Shown here: in pieces, positions 6,969 through 59,370 of the stretch | Layout of the letters: every line of letters starts with the position of its first letter | Numbering within the stretch: the first letter of the stretch is position 1 | Origin: an uncultured virus (IMG/VR IMGVR_UViG_3300029923_000016) | Taxonomy: Duplodnaviria > Heunggongvirae > Uroviricota > Caudoviricetes | Length of the DNA stretch: 64,000 nt | Virus record (IMG/VR): IMGVR_UViG_3300029923_000016 | Reading direction: 5' to 3' (one strand) | Notes under the pieces: model-generated | The model's input: only the letters and a program-made list of their open reading frames with translations | The model's database searches: none | What the model was told of the DNA's origin: nothing | Translations under genes and position numbers: made by a program

Positions 6969-7931
6969 TTAAGTCGCCGCAAAATAGGTGATACTAATAT
7001 TAAACCCGGACGTTGTACTTGGCGCAGGGCCACCCGTAAAAAAGTTTAAGTTACTGCCCGCAACATAGACTCCATATATTCCAGGGCTACCCAGCACAGT
7101 ACCGCTCGAAGAGCCAATTGCGGCAAAGGGTAAGGGTATAACTGAAAAGCTTGATATTTGTACGGATGTTGCCCCACGCAATAACATATTTAAGGTAACT
7201 TGCCTGCCAATTTTTGTATAGAGAAAAGAGGACGTGTTCGCTCCAACAAAGGTAATAGAGGCGCCTATAGTTGGCGTCCAGCTCCCCTCTTGGTAATCAT
7301 CCAGCGTATTAACATCCGTGCTGGCAACCTGTGTAGCAGGGAAGCCTACTTGCCCGCCCCGTAGGGCTAAGGTGCCGACGCCGGCGGTAACATTGGAAGA
7401 GGCCCCGGTGAACTTAACCAACCCTGTCGCAGCGATGGTATTAAAGGTAGGGGTGGTTGACGTCGAGACAGCAGTAGCATCGCCTACTGTCGCTATCGTA
7501 ATATTGGTGCCTGCCGTCACACTGGTGTTATTGAGCGCCTGAACGAAATTCACGGTATCACAATAGACCAGCACCGTTGCGCCGGCTTTAACAGAGACAG
7601 CACTGCCCGTTGCTCCACGAATACGGATATCAAAACCCCCCGTCGTCGCATTGCGGACAATATAGGTCTTCTCGACGAGCGGCGCAATGATGTCAAAAAT
7701 AGCGGCGGGTGTGCCCGTCGCCACCAATACCGCATTACGCGCCTGATTACTGATGCCGTCCGAATTAGTCAGCGTGACATTGGCTGTTGATATCACAATC
7801 GCCTGCACGCCGGTGATAGCCTGCTCTATCAAGGTGCCGAGATTGGTGTTGGTCAACGTGCCCCAGGTGCCGGTGTTCTCCCCCGTACCTAATAACGCTA
7901 TTTTTAAACTTGGGGAGTAGGAGGTTGCCAT
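6969..7931 (-). CDS. Tail fibre-like structural protein
   Basis: N-terminus TGENTGTWGTLTNTNLGTLIEQAI; LDDYQEGSWTPT...YTKIGRQV module common in fibres. Confidence 0.7.
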   Translation of the reverse strand: MATSYSPSLKIALLGTGENTGTWGTLTNTNLGTLIEQAITGVQAIVISTANVTLTNSDGISNQARNAVLVATGTPAAIFDIIAPLVEKTYIVRNATTGGFDIRIRGATGSAVSVKAGATVLVYCDTVNFVQALNNTSVTAGTNITIATVGDATAVSTSTTPTFNTIAATGLVKFTGASSNVTAGVGTLALRGGQVGFPATQVASTDVNTLDDYQEGSWTPTIGASITFVGANTSSFLYTKIGRQVTLNMLLRGATSVQISSFSVIPLPFAAIGSSSGTVLGSPGIYGVYVAGSNLNFFTGGPAPSTTSGFNISITYFAAT

Positions 7932-7953
7932 GCTAATTATCCTGTGGTATTAT
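7925..7953 (+). promoter_or_regulatory. Sigma70-like promoter for guide array 1
   Basis: TTGCCA-17 bp-TATTAT with extended TG. Confidence 0.7.
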
Positions 7954-7959
7954 ATTGTT

Positions 7960-8057
7960 TCGATGCGGTGCGATGCTATGCGTTGCGTTGCGCAGCATTG
8001 CGAAGCAAAGGTTACTTTAAAGTATCTAATCAAGCCTCGGTAAAACGAGGCTTTTTT
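7960..8057 (+). ncRNA. Putative non-contiguous guide RNA, array 1: (GCNNW)x9, palindrome, terminator
   Basis: GCGGT GCGAT GCTAT GCGTT GCGTT GCGCA GCATT GCGAA GCAAA at 7965-8009; TACTTTAAAGTA; terminal hairpin. Antisense to the late operon. Confidence 0.8.
8032..8057 (+). terminator. Rho-independent terminator
   Basis: AAGCCTCG-gtaaaa-CGAGGCTT followed by a T-run. Confidence 0.8.
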
Positions 8058-8064
8058 ATGCCCC

Positions 8065-8193
8065 CTATTGCGAGTCGTCTATAATAGCCCAATCGACCGT
8101 TTGGCTGTTGTCTATCAACTCCCAGACTTGGGTCAGTCGTTCGTTAGGGTCTTGTGAAAAAGCCAGTTCTGAATAAGCACTATTCCCGTACAC
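8065..8193 (-). CDS. Small virion-associated protein (42 aa, below ORF-track cutoff)
   Basis: GTG start with GGAGG RBS: MYGNSAYSELAFSQ...WELIDNSQTVDWAIIDDSQ. Confidence 0.6.
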   Translation of the reverse strand: MYGNSAYSELAFSQDPNERLTQVWELIDNSQTVDWAIIDDSQ

Positions 8194-30395: not shown

Positions 30396-30608
30396 CTATC
30401 TCCTAAATGGCAATAGCCCGGGGCCGCCGGGAAAGATGCCGATACAATTGAGTACGGCAATCAGGACTAATAAGCCAAACAAGAGGCGGATGAGCATGAT
30501 AACGGGTGGTGGTAGGGGCAAGAACTGTGCCAGCAAGGTCTCGATAATGTACAGTACAATAAGTGCTACGATAATCCAGATGATGAGGTAGACCAAACAG
30601 CTAAGCAT
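30396..30608 (-). CDS. Small 2-TM membrane protein
   Basis: Two hydrophobic helices joined by PLPPP. Confidence 0.65.
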   Translation of the reverse strand: MLSCLVYLIIWIIVALIVLYIIETLLAQFLPLPPPVIMLIRLLFGLLVLIAVLNCIGIFPGGPGLLPFRR

Positions 30609-31281
30609 GACGATTTCCTTTAACGAAATTTAACTTGGCAGGGATAATCTGGAGATTGCTTGGAACGTGCAGTCCGGACACTTTCTTGCCTCGTAGTGGA
30701 ATGATGTGGTCAACATTGCATTGTACGCCAGTTAGGCGCGTGCGCAACTCTGAAAGTATGTAAATCTCTTCCATCATCCATAAGTCTAGTGGGGAAAGCC
30801 AAGTGGGGGTACGCTGTGCTTTAGCTATTTCTCGCAAGTTCTTTTTAGCTCTGACCTTACCAGGATTATTTTGGCGATATGCCCTAGCCGTAGCGGACAT
30901 ACGCGCTCGGTTATTGTCCCTCCATATAGCCGCGAGTTTTGAAATACGCTCAGTATTTGAGTAATACCAATTCCTACACATCGCTATATACTTTTCCTTA
31001 TTTGCCTCTCTCCAAGCCTGGCACCGAGCTAACTCCTTTTCGGGGTTTTCTTGTCGCCAGCGTTTATTATTGGCTAAGTCTATATCCTTCCTTTTTGCGT
31101 ATTGGGTTTTGCTATATTCTGCTACCTTATCCGGGTTAGCCCTACGCCACGCCAAGCTTCTGGCATATATCTCTGCTTTATGCTGTTCTCTATATCCTTT
31201 AGCCTGAGCAGCCAGCTTCTCTTTATTTGCGTAATAATACGCTCTTTGTTGTGCTTTTCTTTCTTCGTGTGTCAGTGCCAT
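30601..31281 (-). CDS. HNH homing endonuclease
   Basis: VDHIIPLRGKKVSGLHVPSNLQII; W...N repeats; sits between TerL and portal. Confidence 0.88.
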   Translation of the reverse strand: MALTHEERKAQQRAYYYANKEKLAAQAKGYREQHKAEIYARSLAWRRANPDKVAEYSKTQYAKRKDIDLANNKRWRQENPEKELARCQAWREANKEKYIAMCRNWYYSNTERISKLAAIWRDNNRARMSATARAYRQNNPGKVRAKKNLREIAKAQRTPTWLSPLDLWMMEEIYILSELRTRLTGVQCNVDHIIPLRGKKVSGLHVPSNLQIIPAKLNFVKGNRHA

Positions 31282-41171: not shown

Positions 41172-41792
41172 ATGAATAACGACGCAATCGAAGCCATAGC
41201 TTACGCCCAATGGACTCAGACCACCCCTCCCATCGGGGAAAATTTTCCAACCCACTATGGACGATTTATGAAATCAAGAGATGTATTGTACGGCAAGCAA
41301 GGTAAAAACGATGAGTGTTACACGCCGGACTACGCAGTAAAACCTATTATTCAATATATTCCGGAAGGGTCTATTGTATGGTGCCCGTTCGATACTGAGG
41401 CAAGTCAATTTGTTATTCAGTTAAAACAAGCGGGGTTTGAAGTAGTGTACTCGCATATAAGCCAAGGTCAAGACTTTTATAAATACGAGCCTAAAAAATG
41501 GGACATTATGATTTCCAACCCGCCTTTTACAGGGAAGCGCAAAATTTTTGAGCGCGCATTAAGTTTCAATAAGCCTTTTGCTTTAATCATGAGCAATACT
41601 TGGCTTAACGACGCCGCTCCAAAACAATTATTTAAGGATAAGGATTTACAATTGCTAATGTTTAATGAGCGCATGAAGTTTGATAATCAAGACAACTCGC
41701 AAAACAAAATTACTTTTAGCAGTAGTTATTATTGCTGGAACTTCCTACCTAAACAACTCATTATGGGGTCATTGAAAGATTATGGAAAATAG
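41172..41792 (+). CDS. Amino-methyltransferase (probably N6-adenine DNA MTase); alternative start at 41268
   Basis: DECYTP, VWCPFD, GQDF, ISNPPF motif IV; TTGACA-17 bp-TAGAAT promoter at 41039. Confidence 0.8.
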   Translation: MNNDAIEAIAYAQWTQTTPPIGENFPTHYGRFMKSRDVLYGKQGKNDECYTPDYAVKPIIQYIPEGSIVWCPFDTEASQFVIQLKQAGFEVVYSHISQGQDFYKYEPKKWDIMISNPPFTGKRKIFERALSFNKPFALIMSNTWLNDAAPKQLFKDKDLQLLMFNERMKFDNQDNSQNKITFSSSYYCWNFLPKQLIMGSLKDYGK

Positions 41793-42408
41793 TAATCCGT
41801 TCCGTCCTGGGACACAAGCACACCTGTTCTGTGAGATAGCACATGTTGATTACCTTACGGGATTTTCTGATATTGTAGAATTGCCCACACTTATTGCGGT
41901 CGGCCTGCAACAAGAGGTAGGCAGTAATGGAGGTAGCTGGTGCCGCTCCGATGGTGTACTCGGTTCCAAGTTTAACATCCATAGGCGGCTGGCAGGGGGC
42001 AGGATAGTGTCGGTACAGCTTGTCGGCTTTGCCAAGAATAATTTCACTAACAAAATTGATACTGCTATCATCGACGCTTACAAGAATGCTAATTGTAGAG
42101 TGTTGGCTATTAAAGGCAAGACTATCGAGATAGACCATAAAGATGGGCGCAAAGATGACTATAGCTTGCACGATAATCAAACATTGGATGATTTTCAGCC
42201 CTTACATAAGAGTGCTAATGTAGCCAAACGCCGACATTGTAATGTATGTAAAGAAACCAGAATACGCTTTGATGCAACTCGACTAGGATACAGTGTCCCA
42301 CAATACATAGGAACTACGCACTATACGGGCTCATGCGTGGGTTGTTATTGGTATGATATGGAGACATTCAACCGACATGTATCTGAGGACTATGTGAAAA
42401 TTAGGTAG
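41782..42408 (+). CDS. HNH-type restriction endonuclease, NlaIII/IceA1-like
   Basis: NGGSWCR, IEIDHKDGRK, DFQPL.K.AN..KR..C..CKET..R, C.GCYWYD; overlaps the MTase stop. Confidence 0.7.
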   Translation: MENSNPFRPGTQAHLFCEIAHVDYLTGFSDIVELPTLIAVGLQQEVGSNGGSWCRSDGVLGSKFNIHRRLAGGRIVSVQLVGFAKNNFTNKIDTAIIDAYKNANCRVLAIKGKTIEIDHKDGRKDDYSLHDNQTLDDFQPLHKSANVAKRRHCNVCKETRIRFDATRLGYSVPQYIGTTHYTGSCVGCYWYDMETFNRHVSEDYVKIR

Positions 42409-44574: not shown

Positions 44575-45141
44575 ATGCTTACCCAAGAAATCCTAAAATA
44601 CCATTTGTCTTATGCTCCTGAAACCGGAGAGTTTGTCTGGATTAGGCCAAGAGCCAATTGGATGAAGCCGGGGAGTGTTGCTGGATTTACAGAGAAGAAG
44701 GGGTATCGAAGTATTATCTTATATGGCAAAACATATAAGCTGCATAGGATTGTCTGGCTTTATGTATACAACAAGTGGCCTCCATCTGATATCGACCATA
44801 TAAATGGTATCAAAGCTGATAATAGGTTGTGTAATCTTAGAGAGGCTACGCGTAGCCAAAATATAAGACATAGTGGTGTATATAAGAACAATATATCTGG
44901 GCATAAAGGTGTCTATTATCATGCCCGCCTAGATAAATGGGAGGCGCATATCCACTACAACAAAAAATTACGGTACTTAGGCGTATACCCTACGAAAGAA
45001 GAAGCAATAGCAGTGTATACGGCGTTCGCCGCTGCTATATGTAAAGAATTTCTCCATTCTAGTTTGGAGGGAGGTCTCGTTGGTGCCGATGCACCAGTAA
45101 TGAAACGGTCTCGTCGGTGCCGAAACACTGACAGTAAATAA
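44575..45141 (+). CDS. HNH homing endonuclease with AP2-like domain
   Basis: HRIVW, IDHINGIKADNRLCNLREAT..QN, SGHKGV...W.A.I...YLG.Y.T.EEA. Confidence 0.92.
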   Translation: MLTQEILKYHLSYAPETGEFVWIRPRANWMKPGSVAGFTEKKGYRSIILYGKTYKLHRIVWLYVYNKWPPSDIDHINGIKADNRLCNLREATRSQNIRHSGVYKNNISGHKGVYYHARLDKWEAHIHYNKKLRYLGVYPTKEEAIAVYTAFAAAICKEFLHSSLEGGLVGADAPVMKRSRRCRNTDSK

Positions 45142-48623: not shown

Positions 48624-48822
48624 GTCCCTATTCTGCCACTTCGACGAAGCCCGGGGCATCTGCCTCGGCTGCTTCAGAACCCGCTATGACTTACGGCATT
48701 GGACGGGATATAACGATATTTTAAGGCAGAAAGTAATGATGCGTTCTTTTGAGCGCATGGATGATTTCTTTATTGTAAATGAGCAGTTCTTTAATCGAAA
48801 CCTTGACCATTACGACGGGTGA
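48592..48822 (+). CDS. DUF1289-like Cys-rich protein
   Basis: STPC...C.FD...ICLGCFRT..D...W. Confidence 0.65.
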   Translation: MATYRISTPCESLFCHFDEARGICLGCFRTRYDLRHWTGYNDILRQKVMMRSFERMDDFFIVNEQFFNRNLDHYDG

Positions 48823-48831
48823 GGGTATTAT
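48803..48831 (+). promoter_or_regulatory. Sigma70-like promoter for guide array 2
   Basis: TTGACC-17 bp-TATTAT. Confidence 0.75.
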
Positions 48832-48837
48832 ATGAAC

Positions 48838-48935
48838 CCTAAGCGCTGCCTTGCCCTGCTTAGCCTAGCTTAGCGATGCGCTGCAAAGCAAAGACTAATT
48901 AATTAGTGGTCTACACTCTCTGACGAGAGTGTTTT
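48838..48935 (+). ncRNA. Putative non-contiguous guide RNA, array 2: (GCNNW)x10 plus two hairpins
   Basis: Pentamers at 48843-48892; ACTAATTAATTAGT; ACACTCTC-tgac-GAGAGTGT. Confidence 0.8.
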
Positions 48936-48960: not shown

Positions 48961-49269
48961 ATGTCCTATTTAACGCCCGAAGGGCGAATCAAAAAGCAAA
49001 TCAAAGCTATACTGGCTGAGTATGGGGTATATTATTTCATGCCAGCGCCCGGGTTTACTTGTAAAGTAGGCGTTCCAGACTATATATGCTGCCTTAATGG
49101 GCATTTCATAGCCATCGAAGCCAAGGCCGGGCGCAAGCTGCCGACGCTGCTGCAACAACGTGAACTTGACTTAATCAACGCCGCAGGCGGCGTGGCTTTG
49201 GTGGTTAACGCCGACAACATACACGCTTTTCCCCTCATACTACAAGAGATAATGAAATGCAACTACTAA
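48961..49269 (+). CDS. VRR-NUC domain nuclease
   Basis: TPEG.IK..I...L, GVPDYI, FIAIEAKAG..PT.LQ. Confidence 0.88.
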   Translation: MSYLTPEGRIKKQIKAILAEYGVYYFMPAPGFTCKVGVPDYICCLNGHFIAIEAKAGRKLPTLLQQRELDLINAAGGVALVVNADNIHAFPLILQEIMKCNY

Positions 49270-52055
49270 CTCTGGACGCAGAAACTTTTTATGCAAAAGA
49301 TTATTCCCTAAGTAAGCTGACGACCGAGCAATATATAACAGATGACCGCTTCGAGGTTATCGGTGTATCCACCAAGATTAACAACGAGCCCGCACAATGG
49401 TTCTCCGGAACATTTGATGAGACGAAAGCATACCTAAACCAATTTGATTGGGATGATATTGCATTAGTAAACCACAATAGTCTATTCGACTCAAGCATCC
49501 TTGGCCTGCGCTTCGGTATCCACCCTAAGAAGCTCATCGACACGCTAAGTATGTCAAGAGCAATCCATGGCATCGAGGTCGGGGGCAGTCTGGCCAAGCT
49601 GGCTGAGCATTACCAGCTGGGTGTCAAGGGCACTGAGGTCATCAATGCCTTGGGTAAACGTAAACAAGACTTTACTACTGAAGAACTAGCGCGCTATGGT
49701 GAGTACTGCAAGAACGACACCGAGCTAACGTACAAATTGTTTTACAAACTACTGCCGCACTTTACTAAATCTGAATTAGACATTATTGATATCACCCTGA
49801 AGATGGCCACACGACCGTTGTTGGAATTGGATAAAGCCGTGCTGACCGCACACCTTGCCGACGTGCAAGCTAAAAAACAAGCGCTCATGGACAAGGTCAT
49901 TGTCTCTCGAAAAGAGCTGATGTCCAACGTCAAATTGGCGCAACTGCTGATAGACTGTGGCGTGGAGCCGCCAATGAAGCTGTCGCCGACTACCGGTAAG
50001 CCGGCCTATGCGTTCGCTAAAACAGACGAGGGCTTCAAAGCATTACTTGACTCTGATAACCTTATGGTACAAACTATTGTTGCTGCTCGGTTGGGTGTTA
50101 AATCAACGCTTGAAGAAACGCGATGTGAAAGGGTTATTGGCATTGCAGAAAGGAACAGGTGTTGTCCTTTCCCGCTGAAGTATTACAGTGCCGCGACAGG
50201 GCGCTGGGCGGGGGCAGATAAAATCAATGTCCAGAATTTCCCGCGTAAGTCGCCGTTAAAGCGAGCGTTCAAGGCCCCCGAGGGTTATGTTATTCTGGGC
50301 GCGGACTTAAAACAAATCGAACTGCGCGTGGGCCTCTGGCTGTCGTCGGAGTGGGAGAAACTGGATATCCTGGCAGGCGGGCTGGACTTGTATAAAGTCT
50401 TCGCCTCAGAGGTACTGGGTGTTGCCTATGATGAGGTCACAGAAGACCAGCGCTTTATTGCCAAGACCTCCTGTATCGCAGAAGGACAGCTTGTCCTTAC
50501 CCCAAGGGGTTTAGTGCCTATAGAAAACATTTTGGTAGACGATAGAGTATGGGATGGGGTAGAATGGGTCTCACATGATGGGGTCATTTACCAAGGGGAG
50601 AGAGATGTCATCACATACCAAGGACTTACAGCCACTACCGACCATATTATATTTACGCAAACTGGTGAGACCCGCCAGTTCGGGGATGCCGCCAATTTAT
50701 CAGCGCGTCTCGCTACTACCGGAGATGATAGGCGCCCGCTTAAATTCATGGGAGATAATCAGTACCGAGATACAACAAACAGTGAAATCGGGGAGCATAA
50801 AGATACATGTGCGCTGCGTTTGTGGCAGAGAGCAGTGGGCGTATGTAGAGGCCATTATCAGAGGGCAGTCCAGACGATGCAAGCCTTGTGCAACACGAAC
50901 TCGGCACCAAAGGCAAGGTCATCTGATTGTCTGGGACAAGGTTACGGAGCTTATACAAAAACGGGCAACAGCTATGCAACAAAGATGCTGCAATCCTATG
51001 GACAAAGGCTACGCCAATTACGGAGGACGAGGGATTCAGTTTTTGTTTGGCTCAACGAAAGAGTGTGTAGAGTATATCAAAACGTTGCCTCTCTGGGATT
51101 CCGGGTTGGAGGTGGACCGAATCGACAACAATGGACACTATGCAGTAGGGAACTTGCGTATGGTGTCCCGCAAGGTACAGACCAGCAATCGTCGAAATAC
51201 GATGTGGATTTCGTGGCGAGAGGAAATGCTTCTGGTAGCGGACTGGGCAGAATCCCCTTACGCACTGAGAGTAACCTGCAAGTATGTTCAGCAGGGTTTA
51301 ACGGGGGAACAAATTATCCAGACCGCATGGGACTCAGTGGCGAAGAAATGCAAGAATTGGCGGGGGATAAAAAGAAAGTTAGAGTCTATGACATATTAAA
51401 CGCCGGCCCTAGGCATCGCTTCACGGTGTCTAACGTGTTAGTCCATAACTGTCTGTCATTGGTTTTTGGGGTGGGCGCGGCGAAGCTGCAAGCGGCTATT
51501 CTCTCGGGTATAGGTTTGGATGTGGGCATCGTCGAAAGTAAACGGATAGTGGAATTTTACCGAGACAACCACCCCGGTGTGAGAGCAGCATGGTCGGCGT
51601 GTGGTAACGCTATTAAGTTATTAACCACAGGCGGTGAGGGGATGATACTAACCGATAATTTAATCAAGGTCGAAGGGCGCAAGGGTATCCGGCTACCGTC
51701 AGGACTGTATTTAAAATACCCTGAGCTACAGTATTCTGAAGATGCGCAGACCCGGAAGCGGGAATATAAATACAAAATTAGAAGCAGTTGGGATAGATTG
51801 TACAGCGGTAAGTGTTTTAACAATATTACTCAGGCAACTGCACGCTGTATCTTTGCTGAGGCGCTACCCAAAATCAATAAGCATTACCCTATTGTATTAT
51901 TGATTCACGACGCCGCCTATGTCCTGGTGCCGGAGGGGGGTGTAGAGGAGGCGAAGCAGATTTTAGAAGAAATCATGTGCCAGCCGCCGGACTGGATGCC
52001 GGATATTCCCTTGGAGGTTGAGTTTCATTATGGCCGAACTCTTTTCGATTGTTAG
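49257..52055 (+). CDS. Family A DNA polymerase with intein
   Basis: LTLDAET exonuclease motif, TGRW, ADLKQIELR (motif A), RFIAKTS/CLSLVFG (motif B, split by intein), IHD (motif C). Confidence 0.92.
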   Translation: MQLLTLDAETFYAKDYSLSKLTTEQYITDDRFEVIGVSTKINNEPAQWFSGTFDETKAYLNQFDWDDIALVNHNSLFDSSILGLRFGIHPKKLIDTLSMSRAIHGIEVGGSLAKLAEHYQLGVKGTEVINALGKRKQDFTTEELARYGEYCKNDTELTYKLFYKLLPHFTKSELDIIDITLKMATRPLLELDKAVLTAHLADVQAKKQALMDKVIVSRKELMSNVKLAQLLIDCGVEPPMKLSPTTGKPAYAFAKTDEGFKALLDSDNLMVQTIVAARLGVKSTLEETRCERVIGIAERNRCCPFPLKYYSAATGRWAGADKINVQNFPRKSPLKRAFKAPEGYVILGADLKQIELRVGLWLSSEWEKLDILAGGLDLYKVFASEVLGVAYDEVTEDQRFIAKTSCIAEGQLVLTPRGLVPIENILVDDRVWDGVEWVSHDGVIYQGERDVITYQGLTATTDHIIFTQTGETRQFGDAANLSARLATTGDDRRPLKFMGDNQYRDTTNSEIGEHKDTCALRLWQRAVGVCRGHYQRAVQTMQALCNTNSAPKARSSDCLGQGYGAYTKTGNSYATKMLQSYGQRLRQLRRTRDSVFVWLNERVCRVYQNVASLGFRVGGGPNRQQWTLCSRELAYGVPQGTDQQSSKYDVDFVARGNASGSGLGRIPLRTESNLQVCSAGFNGGTNYPDRMGLSGEEMQELAGDKKKVRVYDILNAGPRHRFTVSNVLVHNCLSLVFGVGAAKLQAAILSGIGLDVGIVESKRIVEFYRDNHPGVRAAWSACGNAIKLLTTGGEGMILTDNLIKVEGRKGIRLPSGLYLKYPELQYSEDAQTRKREYKYKIRSSWDRLYSGKCFNNITQATARCIFAEALPKINKHYPIVLLIHDAAYVLVPEGGVEEAKQILEEIMCQPPDWMPDIPLEVEFHYGRTLFDC
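50472..51449 (+). mobile_element. Intein in DNA polymerase motif B (326 aa, C1...HN|C+1)
   Basis: CIAEGQLVLT (block A), TATTDH (block B), VYDI...F..SNVLVHN (blocks F/G). Confidence 0.9.
50686..51399 (+). CDS. HNH-type homing endonuclease overprinted in the +1 frame of the polymerase intein (frame open from 50575)
   Basis: RCVCG, C..C, MQQRC.NP...YANYGGRGI, EVDRIDNNGHY.VGNLR.V....Q..NRR. Confidence 0.85.
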   Translation: MPPIYQRVSLLPEMIGARLNSWEIISTEIQQTVKSGSIKIHVRCVCGREQWAYVEAIIRGQSRRCKPCATRTRHQRQGHLIVWDKVTELIQKRATAMQQRCCNPMDKGYANYGGRGIQFLFGSTKECVEYIKTLPLWDSGLEVDRIDNNGHYAVGNLRMVSRKVQTSNRRNTMWISWREEMLLVADWAESPYALRVTCKYVQQGLTGEQIIQTAWDSVAKKCKNWRGIKRKLESMTY

Positions 52056-52551: not shown

Positions 52552-52691
52552 TCAAAGCTATGCAATGCTTAGCCGTGCACTGCGATGCTGAGCGATGCCG
52601 TGCCTAGCTATGCTCTGCGGAGCAATGCAAAGCCTAATTAATTAGGGTACTGAGTCTTCTCACGAGGGCTTAGTGCGGTAATTAATTTACC
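52552..52691 (+). ncRNA. Putative guide array 3: (GCNNW)x15 plus three hairpins
   Basis: Pentamers at 52557-52631; CCTAATTAATTAGG; 13-bp G-U-rich stem at 52647-52676; GGTAA..TTACC. Confidence 0.85.
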
Positions 52692-52798
52692 AAAGCGCTG
52701 CTGTGCCTTGCTATGCGAAGCCATGCGGAGCAATGCAAAGGCTATTTTAATAATAGCGTACTAGCCATTCCAACGAGTGGTTAGTGCGGTATTGTACC
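52692..52798 (+). ncRNA. Putative guide array 4: (GCNNW)x9 plus three hairpins
   Basis: Pentamers at 52695-52739; GCTATT..AATAGC; 13-bp stem at 52758-52787; GGTA..TACC. Confidence 0.85.
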
Positions 52799-52878
52799 AC
52801 TGCGATGCAGTGCGATGCCTTGCAGTGCCAAGCTTAGCATAGCACAGCGAAGCAAAGGCCGTGCCTTTTAGGCACGGC
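52799..52878 (+). ncRNA. Putative guide array 5: (GCNNW)x11 plus hairpin
   Basis: Pentamers at 52802-52856; GCCGTGCCT-ttt-AGGCACGGC. Confidence 0.82.
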
Positions 52879-52900: not shown

Positions 52901-53590
52901 ATGTCAAAAATGTTGCCGTGGAGTTATTCGGGGCTAAGCCAATTTCAAGTATGCCCGTTGCAATTCTACGAGCATCGCGTACGTAAAAGCGTACCGTTCA
53001 TAGAGACCGATGCGATTAAGTACGGCAAAGCCCTGCACAGCGCGGCGGAGTTTTACATCAAGTCCAACATGCCCTTGCCTGCCGAGTTTGCGTTCATGCA
53101 GAGCTACCTGGATAAGCTAATAGCGTTGCCGGGCAAAAAATATGTCGAGCTACAGATGGGCATAGCTATCAAAGATTGGGCGTTTGTCCATTGTGATTAC
53201 TGGGATTCAAGCTGCTGGTATCGGGGCGTCAGTGATTTTATTTCCGTTGACCACGATAATGAGAAAGCTTACCTGGTCGATTTTAAGACCGGTAAGAGTG
53301 CAGCCTATGCCGACACCACCCAGTTGGCATTACTGGCGGCGCTTATTTTTCTGCATTTCCCGAAGGTCAAAACGGTCAAAAGCATGCTGTTGTTCGTCAA
53401 GGCTGGACAAATTGTCAAAGCAGAGTATGATTTTGCCAGTCGGTTTACAGTGTTTGCGCATCTGAATCAGGACTTAAAACGCCTGAAAGCGGCGTACGAA
53501 AGTAACGTGTGGAATCCAACGCAGAACAATTTCTGCAAGCGCTGGTGTGCGGTACATACCTGTGTACATAACGGAGAATATAGTGAGTGA
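52901..53590 (+). CDS. Cas4-like PD-(D/E)XK exonuclease
   Basis: WSYS.L..F..CP, G..LH, RGVSD, VDFKTGK, QL, C.RWC....C. Confidence 0.88.
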   Translation: MSKMLPWSYSGLSQFQVCPLQFYEHRVRKSVPFIETDAIKYGKALHSAAEFYIKSNMPLPAEFAFMQSYLDKLIALPGKKYVELQMGIAIKDWAFVHCDYWDSSCWYRGVSDFISVDHDNEKAYLVDFKTGKSAAYADTTQLALLAALIFLHFPKVKTVKSMLLFVKAGQIVKAEYDFASRFTVFAHLNQDLKRLKAAYESNVWNPTQNNFCKRWCAVHTCVHNGEYSE

Positions 53591-54288: not shown

Positions 54289-54501
54289 ATGCAAATATCA
54301 ACCAAGTCAGTGATATCACTGGCAGAGGAAGCGGGGCTCCCGCCCTCTTTAATCGAGCGCCACACCGATGCTTTAACGCATTTTGCACTCCGCCTGCGCA
54401 TGGCAGAACGGCGCGTTTGTCGTAATAAGCTGCGCAACTGGACCATAGACAAGTCCCTGAGCAAGCCGCCGCTACTTGAGGCGCTGACGGAGCATGATTG
54501 A
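54289..54501 (+). CDS. Hypothetical protein
   Basis: GAGGA RBS, MQISTKSV. Confidence 0.55.
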   Translation: MQISTKSVISLAEEAGLPPSLIERHTDALTHFALRLRMAERRVCRNKLRNWTIDKSLSKPPLLEALTEHD

Positions 54502-57139
54502 GATAATACATGATAAGGTGTTATCCGTCACCACGGATAGCCCTGACGACATTACAACAGTAATAGACAAGTACAAGATAGACAATGGCAAAGTGCTCAT
54601 CCCCTTTAATCTGGGGAATGTTCACATATTAAAAAACATGGGCTTTACGGTACCGTCGCCCATTGAGACTCGGTATGGGTGGCCTGGACTCCATAAACCC
54701 TTTTCGCATCAGCGCAGTATCGCTTCGTTTTTGACCTTGAATAGGCGGGCGTATAACTTTGGCGAATTAGGAATTGGCAAAACGAAAAGCGCTATCTGGG
54801 CTGCCGACTACCTACTAAGTATAGGTGCTATACGGCGTGTATTGGTTATCGCGCCGCTTAGCATCCTCGATTCTGCATGGAAGCAGGAGATATTCAGGAC
54901 AGTGATGCATCGGTCTGTTGATGTGGCGCATGGCACAAAGGAGAAACGCGAGGCAATAATCAATAGTAAAGCTGAGTTTATACTTATCAATTATGATGGC
55001 GTCGAGATTGTGATTGACGCTTTGGACCGAGGTAACTTTGATTTAATCATAATTGATGAGTGCTTTGTAGCTGGGACACGAGTTCTTACGCCTATTGGTT
55101 TTAGAGCTATTGAACAAATCGTAGAAGGTGATATAATAGAGACAAGTTGGGGGCCAAGACCCGTAACCAAAACGTTTCATAAACAATCATCCAACATAGT
55201 TGAAGTCGAGTTTGAAGATGGTATCAAAATTACCTGCACAGAAGAGCACCCTTTCTCAACCCGAAATGGTTGGGTCGCCGCAAAAGACCTCCTTGGTGAA
55301 ATATGTACTACATCAAGAGAATTGTCACACCTGCGGGACGCCGTTCGAGCAGAAGGTGTTTGCCAACCAGAAGGCATCTCACTATTGTTCTCGCGCATGT
55401 TGGAAAGAGTCGTACTATGTAGATTTGGTGTGCGGGCATTGCGGAAAAAAGTATCGAAAGGTAAAGAGTTACTTAAGAACCAACCCTGCAAAATATTGCA
55501 GCACAAAATGTACGGCGCAAGCGCGCTCTGCAAAAGTTATGGGGGAGACAGTTATGTGTCCGGTCTGCGGAGGGGAGCATTTTGTACCCCACAGAGTGTT
55601 GCGGTATCGTCCAGCATTAACCTGTTCCCGTTCCTGCGCCAGAAAGTTAGTGTGGCAAACAGAGCGAAAGCGGATGATGGATGGCGTACAGAAAGCAGCG
55701 GAGAAGCATCGGGGCCAACCCTCACCTCTCAGGGGGATTCCCCATACAGAAGAGCGCAAGCAACAACAGCGTGCGCTGGCAGTAGAGTTGGGGAGTCGGG
55801 AACCGTTCATGCGAGTGCGGGGCGGCAATGGTACGGGTATGTCAAGAGTAGAGTTACTAATGCGCTCAATACTCCCAGAAAGTTTCCAATACAACTATAT
55901 TGTAAAGACATTACAAAAGCGTGGAAGCGGGTATCCCTATCACTACAAGCTGGATTTCGCAGACCCTTTACAGATGATTTGTTTAGAAGTAGACGGGTAC
56001 AGCCACAATACAATACAGCGTCAAGAACAAGACAGGAAGAAAGAGGCGTTGCTTCAGGACTTAGGGTGGTCAGTGTTACGCGTATCCAACAAGGATGTCC
56101 TCGCGATGTTTGGAATCTGGAAGTAGCGGGCCCTCATGATTATATCGTTGAGGATGTGCTAGTCCATAACTGCAACTACATAAAGAACGTCCAAACCCGC
56201 AAGCACAAGTTCATTAACAAGTTGATTAAAGCGGATACCTGGTGCTGGCTAATGACCGCTACACCGGCTGCGCAGAGCCCTTGTGATGCCTATGGTCTGG
56301 CGCGTATGATAGACCCTAAATCAGTGCCTCGGTCTTATGGTGCATTTAGGGAGATGGTGCAGTATAAAATCAATATGTTTATGTGGATAAATAAACCCGA
56401 TGCAGAGCGAACAGTACACAGAGTTTTACAACCCGCAATTAGATTTACTAAATCAGAATGTTTGGATTTACCTGAGCTATTATATGAGACGCGTGAAGTA
56501 CCTCTGACCGCACAGCAAAACAAGTATTACAAACTTCTAAAAAAGGAAATGATGATTCTCGCTGCGGGTACAACGGTCACTGCGGCGAACGCAGCGGTTC
56601 TGATTGGAAAGTTGTTGCAAATTTCAGCGGGCAACTGTTATGATGAACGTGGGGATATTATTGAGTTTGATATCTCCAACCGATTCAGAGAGCTGTGTGA
56701 TATCATCCGTGAGACGCGTAACAAAACGATAGTGTTTGTGCAGTTTAGGAACTCCATCGAGCGAATCATGCGGATGCTGCAGGATGAAGGCATTACTTGC
56801 GAGGCCATTCACGGGAAAATCCCCATGAATAAGCGGGATGTCATCTTCTCTGATTTCCAAAACAAACCCGACCCGCAAGTGTTAATCATCCAGCCGCAAG
56901 CTGCGGCACACGGTGTGACATTGACAAAAGCGGATACGACAATATGGTTCGGGGTACCCATGTCCTTTGAAATTTACCAACAAGGGAATGGGCGTACGCA
57001 CCGCGCCGGACAACGCAACCAATGTACTGTTGTCCATTTGATAGGTAGTGATGTTGAGAAGAAAGTATTGAACGCGTTGGACAAAAAGAATATGTCCGCA
57101 ACGACTCTATTGGCATTATTTAAAGAGGTAATAAAATGA
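54494..57139 (+). CDS. SNF2-like DNA helicase with intein
   Basis: GIGKT, IIIDE|C (Walker B split by intein), TATP, AHGVTLT, QGNGRTHR.GQ. Confidence 0.92.
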   Translation: MIEIIHDKVLSVTTDSPDDITTVIDKYKIDNGKVLIPFNLGNVHILKNMGFTVPSPIETRYGWPGLHKPFSHQRSIASFLTLNRRAYNFGELGIGKTKSAIWAADYLLSIGAIRRVLVIAPLSILDSAWKQEIFRTVMHRSVDVAHGTKEKREAIINSKAEFILINYDGVEIVIDALDRGNFDLIIIDECFVAGTRVLTPIGFRAIEQIVEGDIIETSWGPRPVTKTFHKQSSNIVEVEFEDGIKITCTEEHPFSTRNGWVAAKDLLGEICTTSRELSHLRDAVRAEGVCQPEGISLLFSRMLERVVLCRFGVRALRKKVSKGKELLKNQPCKILQHKMYGASALCKSYGGDSYVSGLRRGAFCTPQSVAVSSSINLFPFLRQKVSVANRAKADDGWRTESSGEASGPTLTSQGDSPYRRAQATTACAGSRVGESGTVHASAGRQWYGYVKSRVTNALNTPRKFPIQLYCKDITKAWKRVSLSLQAGFRRPFTDDLFRSRRVQPQYNTASRTRQEERGVASGLRVVSVTRIQQGCPRDVWNLEVAGPHDYIVEDVLVHNCNYIKNVQTRKHKFINKLIKADTWCWLMTATPAAQSPCDAYGLARMIDPKSVPRSYGAFREMVQYKINMFMWINKPDAERTVHRVLQPAIRFTKSECLDLPELLYETREVPLTAQQNKYYKLLKKEMMILAAGTTVTAANAAVLIGKLLQISAGNCYDERGDIIEFDISNRFRELCDIIRETRNKTIVFVQFRNSIERIMRMLQDEGITCEAIHGKIPMNKRDVIFSDFQNKPDPQVLIIQPQAAAHGVTLTKADTTIWFGVPMSFEIYQQGNGRTHRAGQRNQCTVVHLIGSDVEKKVLNALDKKNMSATTLLALFKEVIK
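55061..56170 (+). mobile_element. Intein in helicase Walker B (370 aa, C1...HN|C+1)
   Basis: CFVAGTRVLT (block A), ITCTEEHPF (block B), VWNLEV...Y...VLVHN (blocks F/G). Confidence 0.9.
55266..56126 (+). CDS. Zinc-finger plus Vsr/DUF559-like endonuclease overprinted in the +1 frame of the helicase intein (frame open from 55200)
   Basis: Three C..CG...CS..C repeats; YKLDFA...LEVDGYSH.....DRKKE..L..LGWSVLR. Confidence 0.85.
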   Translation: MVGSPQKTSLVKYVLHQENCHTCGTPFEQKVFANQKASHYCSRACWKESYYVDLVCGHCGKKYRKVKSYLRTNPAKYCSTKCTAQARSAKVMGETVMCPVCGGEHFVPHRVLRYRPALTCSRSCARKLVWQTERKRMMDGVQKAAEKHRGQPSPLRGIPHTEERKQQQRALAVELGSREPFMRVRGGNGTGMSRVELLMRSILPESFQYNYIVKTLQKRGSGYPYHYKLDFADPLQMICLEVDGYSHNTIQRQEQDRKKEALLQDLGWSVLRVSNKDVLAMFGIWK

Positions 57140-58271: not shown

Positions 58272-59249
58272 ATGAGCAACTTAAGCATATTTAAAAACGG
58301 CGGCGGCGTCCCTGCCCATCTTCAAAAAAGAGAGCTGTCTGCCGCCACCAAAGCCTTGATGGGTGGTTTTGAAAACCGCCGTATCTCTATCCGGGGCGGG
58401 GTCTTCCGCAAGGTCATCAATGGTCAGGAGGTGGGTTCCATCCCCGAACGGGCACTGAACGTGGTCATTGTTGGCGTCGCCGAGCATACTTCCCGGCAGT
58501 ATTACAAAGCCGCCTATCAGGAGAATGCCGACCCGGTGGCACCGGACTGCTACAGTGCTGACGGCATCACGCCGATGGCAACAGCGACGGCGATTCAAGC
58601 AGCCACCTGCGCCGCCTGTCCACAGAATATCGCAGGCTCAGGCCAAGGTGATTCCAAAGCCTGCCGCTTCCAACGCCGCATTGCGGTGGTCTTGGAGAAA
58701 AACCTGGAAGATGGTGAGGTTTATGAAATGACGCTGGCAGCGACCAGTCTGTTTGGTGGCAAGGGCAAGCCTGACCCCGACAAGATGGGCATGCGCCAGT
58801 ACGCCAACTTTTTGGGTGGTTACGGCGTCAACATCGACGCCGTGGTCACTGAATTGCGCTTTGATTTGGACGCCGCCACCCCGAAATTACTGTTCGCGGC
58901 ATTAAGACCGTTAGAGACGGATGAGCTGTTGCTGGTTGAGGAATATTCCAAATTGCCGGAGACTATCCAGGCTATCACATACAGCTTTGGTGGGGTGGTG
59001 GTGAAACCGGCGGCTGCCGAATTGCCCTTTATCCAGCCTCGCCCAGCTCCTGCCCCCGCAGCTGCGTCAGTGCCTGAGCCAGAGCCCGTCGTTCCGGCAC
59101 GCACAAGGGTCACTCGAAATCGCCCCGCCGCAGCCGCTGCGCCTGCCCCTGAAGTCATTCCGGAGCCGATACGCCGTGAAAGCCACGCCGCGCCGCAACC
59201 CGCCTCGACAAATATTGATGAGCTGCTATCGGAGTGGGGCGACGAGTGA
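58272..59249 (+). CDS. Putative ssDNA-binding/annealing (SSB-like) protein
   Basis: RISIRGG.FR, PDCYS.DG, C..CPQN..GS...KACR, Pro/Ala linker, acidic tail DELLSEWGDE. Confidence 0.65.
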   Translation: MSNLSIFKNGGGVPAHLQKRELSAATKALMGGFENRRISIRGGVFRKVINGQEVGSIPERALNVVIVGVAEHTSRQYYKAAYQENADPVAPDCYSADGITPMATATAIQAATCAACPQNIAGSGQGDSKACRFQRRIAVVLEKNLEDGEVYEMTLAATSLFGGKGKPDPDKMGMRQYANFLGGYGVNIDAVVTELRFDLDAATPKLLFAALRPLETDELLLVEEYSKLPETIQAITYSFGGVVVKPAAAELPFIQPRPAPAPAAASVPEPEPVVPARTRVTRNRPAAAAAPAPEVIPEPIRRESHAAPQPASTNIDELLSEWGDE

Positions 59250-59261: not shown

Positions 59262-59370
59262 TCCATAGCGATGCGATGCCTAGCCTAGCTTAGCGTTGCG
59301 ATGCGATGCTATGCAGTGCAAAGGCCACTTTAAAGTGGCAAGAACGAGCGGCTTAGGCCGCTCCTTTTTC
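59262..59370 (+). ncRNA. Putative guide array 6: (GCNNW)x11, palindrome, terminator
   Basis: Pentamers at 59268-59322; GCCACTTTAAAGTGGC; GAGCGGC-ttag-GCCGCTC plus T-run. Confidence 0.87.

Follow-up and report, generated by a model that had tools for sequence, protein, structure and literature searches.

The complete genome (71,832 bases, 100% complete, with direct terminal repeats; G000) of an uncultured virus of the Caudoviricetes, IMG/VR record IMGVR_UViG_3300029923_000016, is present in peat metagenomes, and its first 64 kb form the window analysed here. The genome carries six unbroken arrays of 9-16 five-base units, dispersed at four sites, in which a fixed WGC trinucleotide (W, A or T) is followed by a variable dinucleotide (NN). 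Array 1 adjoins a 320-aa gene that is likely tail-associated (Table 1), and we consider it probable that this array is the guide of a solo VIPR RNA with a WGC scaffold, which together with a borrowed Vipr protein would silence the likely tail gene of sibling phages, the phage's own allele being predicted to be less sensitive.

VIPR systems, first described in 2026, comprise Vipr, vap and a guide RNA (vrRNA), and are known from Escherichia phage SUSP1 and a P. fulva prophage (main texts of 10.64898/2026.04.26.720920 and 10.64898/2026.04.26.720927). In the mechanism that we propose, the promoter at 7925-7953 would drive an RNA of ~100 nt, on which a Vipr of the WGC clade, supplied in trans by a co-infecting phage or prophage, would polymerise. 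By analogy with SUSP1 VIPR, as set out in the main text of 10.64898/2026.04.26.720920, the loaded complex would bind the start of a sibling's likely tail gene and silence it, while the phage's own allele, which departs from the guide at two read positions, would be bound less well and is predicted to be less sensitive. The guide may adjoin its target because recombination among siblings would otherwise part it from the immune allele and give rise to a self-targeting phage.

Match of array 1 to the start of the adjacent gene

The dinucleotides of array 1 run GG GA TA GT GT GC AT GA AA, and the + strand at 7912-7937, when one base is skipped after each pair, reads GG.GA.TA.GA.GT.GC.AT.CT.AT. The initial annotation had reported this series and an agreement at 6 of 7 coding dinucleotides in the gapped register, and both are borne out (13/14 bases). 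The matched stretch, 7912-7931, corresponds to codons 1-7 of the gene at 6969-7931 read on the opposite strand, and the skipped base is the wobble base of each codon. Read in this way the array decodes to MATTYSP(S) and the phage's own gene to MATSYSPS, confirming that the guide specifies Thr where the phage has Ser at codon 4. The degenerate unit TTCGA directly before the array, which had been taken for a second swap at a Ser codon, also proved to be one, as its dinucleotide GA (TCn) agrees with the array-less relatives L183 and L007 and not with the phage's own AGT. At the end of the array, the final pair of units (GA, AA) agrees with neither the phage's own site nor L183.

The level of chance was estimated from order-shuffles or pool draws, taking the best gapped match within +/-1 kb. 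With the first seven units, 13/14 bases were reached by 2/3000 shuffles and by 2/3000 pool draws, and genome-wide in 7/200 cases. With eight units, 98/3000 shuffles do as well at the base level, and with all nine the result was 51/2000 at the base level and 0/2000 at the peptide level. When the TTCGA unit and all nine units were compared with the phage's own site, the base-level signal was gone (408/2000) and the peptide-level signal stayed (0/2000). Skips of 0, 2 and 3 bases gave no local signal for array 1 (52, 395 and 397 of 400 shuffles, respectively) or for any of the six arrays. The trimming of the last two units was decided after the data were seen; they were dropped because all six arrays carry the end motif GCAAA, array 5 also ending in GA-AA. 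The initial annotation had held that equally good gapped matches from shuffled arrays within 1 kb would speak against the guide; the seven-unit and peptide-level matches withstand this comparison, whereas the eight- and nine-unit base-level matches are equalled more often.

That untrimmed base-level figure of only 51/2000 is what a microsatellite-like repeat with a chance match might give, and pure (AGCAA)n microsatellites are among the 98 stretches found in our array search described below. Against such an origin, the NN positions are diverse, array 1 has a promoter, a tail and a terminator, three arrays of the one genome each decode to a neighbour at 0/2000, and WGC arrays go with Vipr genes. 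The homologue match, the Vipr link and the shuffle tests have largely refuted it already, and we regard it as hardly credible.

The sigma-70-like match upstream of the array is predicted from its sequence to be the promoter of the guide RNA, and its -35 box falls within the target site, overlapping ATG-GCA of the neighbouring gene, as had been noted earlier. Such an overlap would suit self-regulation or a decoy, in which the phage's own site, at 13/14, is still bound and the guide, given a Vipr, either keeps its own promoter and the adjacent gene repressed or titrates the Vipr of a rival. Solo vrRNAs of satellites draw Vipr away to decoy sites (main text of 10.64898/2026.10.15.759431), and the main text of the triplex paper holds no data on mismatch tolerance ('mismatch', 0 occurrences). 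Nevertheless, neither role explains the codon-family swaps or why the guides have relatives' alleles at the mismatches, and the sites of arrays 3 and 6 lie inside genes, not in array promoters; we find either role distinctly unlikely.

The tails of all six arrays fold, their 3' hairpins having z scores of -3.4 to -6.2, and that of array 4 aligns with tails of Vipr-bearing phages. The tail of array 1 is short and diverged; its GCA-AGG junction is common to the guides of Vipr-bearing phages. Four metatranscriptomes yielded six short contigs at a depth of 2.7-5.3, one of them spanning array 1; contigs of this kind do not establish that an RNA is made, from which strand or between which ends. The INPHARED homologues of the gene at 6969-7931 are labelled tail fiber/tail spike, hypothetical or chaperone-domain protein.

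Homologous genes in relatives without the array

The initial annotation had inferred that the array targets the homologous locus of relatives that lack the insertion, and had expected a search of such phages to return perfect sites at the start of this gene. The exact eight-unit pattern had 21 matches in IMG/VR, about the number estimated for chance. One of them, in L183, agrees at 8/8 units and falls precisely on the ATG of the homologue (MATTYSPSL; 49% identity over 123 aa). In L183 this gene directly follows the previous gene and there is no array upstream. A seven-unit pattern anchored at the ATG gave 26 matches, and the only homologous one lies on the same contig as L183. In the closest array-less relative with DNA, L007 (65% identity), the gene begins MPTTYSPS and matches at 7/8 units, with both guide alleles, Thr ACn and Ser TCn. 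These two relatives support the inferred target. The expectation of perfect sites held for L183; the other 20 of the 21 matches are at about the chance level, and a perfect close sibling was not found.

In the alignment with L007 the array 1 cassette is an insertion of ~100 nt, flanked by what is left of the upstream gene and by the ribosome-binding region. The short remnant, at 8068-8145 on the - strand, ends in WELIDNSQTVDWAIIDDSQ and is similar to the C-terminal end of the gene found ahead of the tail gene in both L007 and L183. Of the 112 readable N-termini among the 119 best non-self protein homologues, 110 have Thr as residue 4, so the phage's Ser4 is a rare change exactly at the guide mismatch, and the three closest homologues (63-67%) begin MPTTYSPS. 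WGC arrays were absent from the whole records of L183, L007, L203, L017 and L008, which are 7-48% complete. No array-less sibling was found in four peat DNA runs, three of which contain the identical stretch; the runs may themselves have supplied this DNA, and rare variants are lost in contigs.

The other arrays of the genome and codon choice at their sites

The same one-base-skip reading suggests that up to five of the six arrays point at alleles of neighbouring genes, clearly so for arrays 1, 3 and 6, probably for array 4 and possibly or probably for array 5. GGY arrays of at least four units, the canonical VIPR form, were not found in the genome. Array 3 agrees with the phage's own DNA polymerase A gene at 11/16 residues (0/2000 peptide-level shuffles), and the array-less L206 matches it at 24/32 bases, compared to 20/32 for the phage itself; L206 is the best of 106 homologous sites. 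Array 6 is compatible at 11/11 residues with DELLLVEEYSK in a 325-aa gene of unknown function (0/2000 peptide-level shuffles), and here the array-less L203 reaches 20/22 versus 18/22 for the phage's own site, the best of 71 homologous sites. Right after its copy of this gene, L203 has no array 6; a -10 box of similar sequence is followed there by another element, with two hairpins and a T run.

Array 4 probably decodes to the start of the adjacent PD-(D/E)XK nuclease gene, with 171/2000 local peptide shuffles equalling its match to the phage's own site and 13/18 at the best homologous site, and array 5 possibly targets the relatives' copies of that gene. Relatives begin the nuclease with MSFLPWSYSGLSQF(Q/I)TCP. 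Compared to this start, the phage's own KMLPWSYSGLSQFQVCP agrees less well with array 4 (FLPWSYS) and with the core of array 5 (S-x-LSQFIT). Where the phage has Val, 9/9 of the closest homologues with an N-terminus have Thr. For array 2, L374, the sole match to its nine-unit pattern, was rejected as a target, since the match is out of the reading frame shown and at about the chance level. Outside this genome, L156 may be a second case, an array in a locus without a vipr match whose peptide-level match to its neighbour is 7/10 (1/60 shuffles).

At positions where the guide and the phage's own gene call for the same residue and this is Leu, Arg or Ser, they use different codon families in 10/13 cases (arrays 1, 3, 4 and 6; hand count), compared to a background of 86/300 between this phage and its relatives' orthologues (binomial p 4e-4). 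Inclusion of array 5 gives 11/16 swaps (p 1e-3); the swap sites are not fully independent. This suggests that a switch of codon family at Leu, Arg or Ser, or a conservative substitution, is the escape route left from guides that skip the wobble base.

Table 1. Features of the window that bear on the six arrays
Feature	Position	Strand	Detail
Neighbouring 320-aa gene, likely tail-associated	6969..7931	-	no Pfam match; phrog_31104 (unknown function)
Phage's own near-cognate site	7908..7931	-	codons 1-8, MATSYSPS; versus guide, codon 4 TCC Ser against ACn Thr, codon 8 AGT against TCn
Sigma-70-like promoter match of the guide (predicted)	7925..7953	+	-35 TTGCCA 7925-7930, 17-base spacer, -10 TATTAT 7948-7953; 10/12 versus consensus
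Degenerate first unit TTCGA	7959..7963	+	directly before array 1; NN = GA = Ser TCn
Array 1, guide region of predicted solo vrRNA	7964..8008	+	nine WGC-NN units, (A/T)GC-NN
3' tail of array 1	8009..8060	+	starts AGG; terminator hairpin 8032-8053, then T run; fold z -3.45
Array 2	48842..48891	+	10 units; promoter match of its own at 48803-48831; in the relative L219 a full vipr-vap locus occupies this position
Array 3	52556..52635	+	16 units; decodes to adjacent DNA polymerase A gene at 51771-51818
Array 4	52694..52738	+	9 units; probably antisense to FLPWSYS, start of adjacent PD-(D/E)XK nuclease gene 52901-53590
Array 5	52801..52855	+	11 units; possible target S-x-LSQFIT in the PD-(D/E)XK nuclease gene as found in relatives
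Array 6	59267..59321	+	11 units; decodes to adjacent gene 58272-59249 at 58920-58952

Vipr proteins that accompany WGC arrays

A search for WGC arrays ending in GCAAA returned 98 stretches, some of them microsatellites or further copies of the present genome. The commonest neighbour of these arrays, at 35 of the 98 loci, was a protein of ~200 aa (26 sequences), whose profile matches SUSP1 Vipr (PDB 36pp) at E 2.7e-47 and whose structure model resembles Csm3-type RAMPs. One of the phages that bear it, L090, has a Vipr homologous to that of SUSP1 at E 1.7e-42. Beside the WGC Viprs, vap had no Pfam match; no nuclease domain was found in the vap of L219, and the family is phrog_5926 (unknown function).

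The residues of SUSP1 Vipr that read the first G of GGY are H17 and D177 (main text of 10.64898/2026.04.26.720927). We compared the proteins of L083-L153, L219 and L366-L373, and in the resulting 38 Vipr rows (37 different) the D177 position is acidic (Asp/Glu) in 11, nine with G-first arrays and two with mixed ones. All 27 rows without an acidic residue there have W-first arrays, a comparison that is biased because 29 of the 38 rows came from the WGC search. In the Vipr tree, W-first arrays are found on several distinct branches. One WGC clade, consisting of L083, L084, L089, L090, L099, L119, L219, L366 and L367, has support of 100/100, includes one protein from a metagenome-assembled genome (MAG) of Methylomarinum and one from a Dechloromonas MAG, and is placed among GGY Viprs of Burkholderiales and Methylophilaceae. 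In L118 a single 8-kb locus contains two Vipr genes, accompanied by GGY arrays in one case and by AGC arrays in the other, and L087, L177 and L178 show a different array architecture, very long AGC-NN tracts broken by GGCAGG in place of hairpin tails.

A single-protein scan of GTDB for cellular Vipr donors gave none; an alignment scan found eight loci, two with WGC arrays. A Vipr match was present in 3 of 401 genomes of the order of G006.

Of the 46 WGC guides from loci with a Vipr, three had E<0.05 with a skip of one base, compared to 1, 0 and 0 with skips of 0, 2 and 3. The guide of L090 matches the vipr gene of L219 at 19/20, and that of L093 matches a DUF927 primase-like gene of L294, a relative of this phage, at 23/24, antisense and in the wobble register. 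In the DUF927 stretch hit by this guide, this phage has LPAPTLVDSGGG versus LPAPTIVSSGYG. Of 159 other relaxed WGC guides, taken from the loci compared here, none convincingly targets this genome (best crude E ~0.05).

Neither vipr nor vap was found in the complete genome, the best E with our own profile being 1.6, and phrog_4652 and phrog_5926 had no match. In L219, whose replication module is syntenic with that of this phage throughout, vipr, vap and WGC arrays lie just upstream of the VRR-NUC gene, the position of array 2 here; the stretch 1525-2570 of L219 is a complete WGC VIPR locus in a relative of this phage. The position of array 2 is likely where the lineage formerly carried a vipr-vap locus, since lost.

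The absence of vipr and vap and the locus of L219 would also fit a relic, in which guides and immune alleles were selected while an ancestor had its own vipr-vap and the arrays became inactive with the loss of that locus. A Vipr encoded in cis would moreover account for the strong recoding better than one borrowed occasionally. Nonetheless, all six arrays keep unbroken WGC runs and stable 3' hairpins, promoter matches are kept at arrays 1 and 2, and solo vrRNAs are active in satellites (main text of 10.64898/2026.10.15.759431), which makes a relic an unlikely explanation in our judgement.

Points that weigh against a silencing guide

Several observations count against array 1 as a guide that silences siblings by means of a borrowed Vipr. 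Immunity of the phage's own allele is not assured, because its site agrees at 13/14 core bases and natural SUSP1 targets average 89.2% of read bases (main text of 10.64898/2026.10.15.759431). The benefit is not obvious either, because a sibling's silenced gene could be complemented in trans in the co-infected cell. A Vipr donor in the phage's own samples is hypothetical. The sole perfect homologue, L183, is distant (49% identity, G+C content 0.40), and is a 4.3-kb fragment whose host may differ.

Points of the same kind come from the other arrays. A target of array 2 was not found, the best of the VRR-NUC homologues (53 distinct best sites) reaching 14/20 and the best of the Vipr loci 15/20. 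At the array 4 site L206 has the phage's own two Ser codons, and this swap is therefore not phage-specific. The match of array 5 to the phage's own site is not significant (1270/2000), its best homologous site reaching 15/22, and the perfect ten-unit pattern of array 6 had 0 matches in IMG/VR. Decoding to a neighbour was seen at p<=0.05 in 4 of 79 arrays beside vipr, and as a general property of such WGC arrays it is unsupported.

The pattern searches add a competing target. In L179 and L197, which carry one and the same gene, a terminase of an unrelated phage family matches array 1 at 9/10 units when read in sense as EGDYVVAID, and 8 of the 26 matches to the seven-unit ATG pattern fall in this terminase family at 8/10 units, so that the terminase might be the real target and the match to the neighbour chance. 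However, two unrelated genes, L190 and L192, also stand at 9/10 among the 21 matches, and this level thus arises by chance in IMG/VR. The ten loci have only HNH-like genes in common with the phage, and its other five guides match them poorly. As a terminase target would also leave the local match (0/2000 at the peptide level) and the rare Thr-to-Ser change unexplained, we consider it very unlikely.

Relation to known systems

Judged from its sequence, array 1 would work like a VIPR solo guide, sharing the features of solo vrRNAs that were compared except for the GGY scaffold, with the agreement of the 3' tail less clear. The literature comparisons that follow rest on main texts. Like VIPR vrRNAs, the arrays have a five-base period, a variable NN and 9-16 units, and their folding 3' tails may correspond to the structured tail of vrRNAs; they share the 1-nt skip on the wobble base (arrays 1, 3 and 6), targets on either strand and the association with a SUSP1 Vipr homologue, here in other phages. 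In contrast to VIPR, the scaffold is WGC and not GGY, which fits the published alternative YNNNG class, and unlike a complete system the genome is without vipr and vap, its arrays being dispersed at four sites, with up to five of the six pointing at alleles of neighbouring genes.

Solo (orphan) vrRNAs have been reported from SUSP1-like phages and F5 satellites (10.64898/2026.10.15.759431). They share with the arrays described here guides in a vipr-null phage, a self-match below the match to the rival, a relative that keeps vipr-vap at the matching position, and the existence of a Vipr clade for the scaffold, as WGC arrays flank Vipr genes. The published ones differ in that they remain where the locus was deleted and are directed at vipr, other vrRNAs, satellites or REP elements, whereas the guides here adjoin, and point at, siblings' core replication and structural genes. 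In the main text of that paper 'homing' has 0 occurrences, and the passages on 'adjacent' and 'synonymous' do not describe a guide-beside-target layout. Non-canonical VIPR arrays (GAC, CAC, WGT and TGH; 10.64898/2026.10.21.760802) are similar in that other fixed trinucleotides occur next to Vipr-like folds. The main texts of these two papers do not mention WGC, although Fig. S10 of the latter may list it.

The layout recalls the free-standing homing endonucleases and marker exclusion of T4 (PMC2988022) and the interference of PhiPA3 gp210 (PMC11620839), in which an inserted element that confers specificity lies beside a conserved gene and acts in co-infection on a relative's copy. It differs from both in that the specificity would reside in RNA and no linked nuclease was found. 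We found no description of guides beside immune alleles of core genes in the main texts covered; the bioRxiv supplements may contain material on WGC or on targets in neighbours.

VIPR, the skip code, solo guides with a lower self-match and non-GGY scaffolds are already in print. The additions from this genome are a WGC scaffold and its correlate in the protein, a natural target with a perfect match, statistics on codon families and a relative showing the probable former position of the effector. The VIPR papers argue in their main texts that wobble skipping makes synonymous escape hard; escape by codon family or conservative substitution is seen here at several guides of one genome at once. 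The natural trios of guide, sensitive allele and own allele provide material for measuring mismatch tolerance, and the genome offers a testable reason for the dispersal of guides to sites beside core genes. Viprs that accompany the WGC scaffold have lost the G-loop Asp by which SUSP1 Vipr reads G1, and this simple protein-scaffold rule bears on the engineering of orthogonal VIPR tools.

Much more tentatively, and with doubt prevailing, guide and immune allele might together constitute a protein-free, RNA-programmed allele drive. If so, a cassette of ~100 nt lands beside a conserved gene and blocks siblings' copies via another phage's Vipr, and cassette and recoded allele would spread among siblings by marker exclusion, like a free-standing homing endonuclease without a protein of its own. 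The WGC scaffold and the G1-blind Vipr clade would then be a channel orthogonal to GGY systems.

Other features of the window

Judged from their translations, the DNA polymerase (49257-52055) and helicase (54494-57139) genes appear to carry inteins, and HNH-like genes lie at 1354-2139, 30601-31281 and 44575-45141. At 41172-42408 an IceA-family nuclease gene (PF05315) adjoins a gene that appears, from its motif, to be methyltransferase-like.
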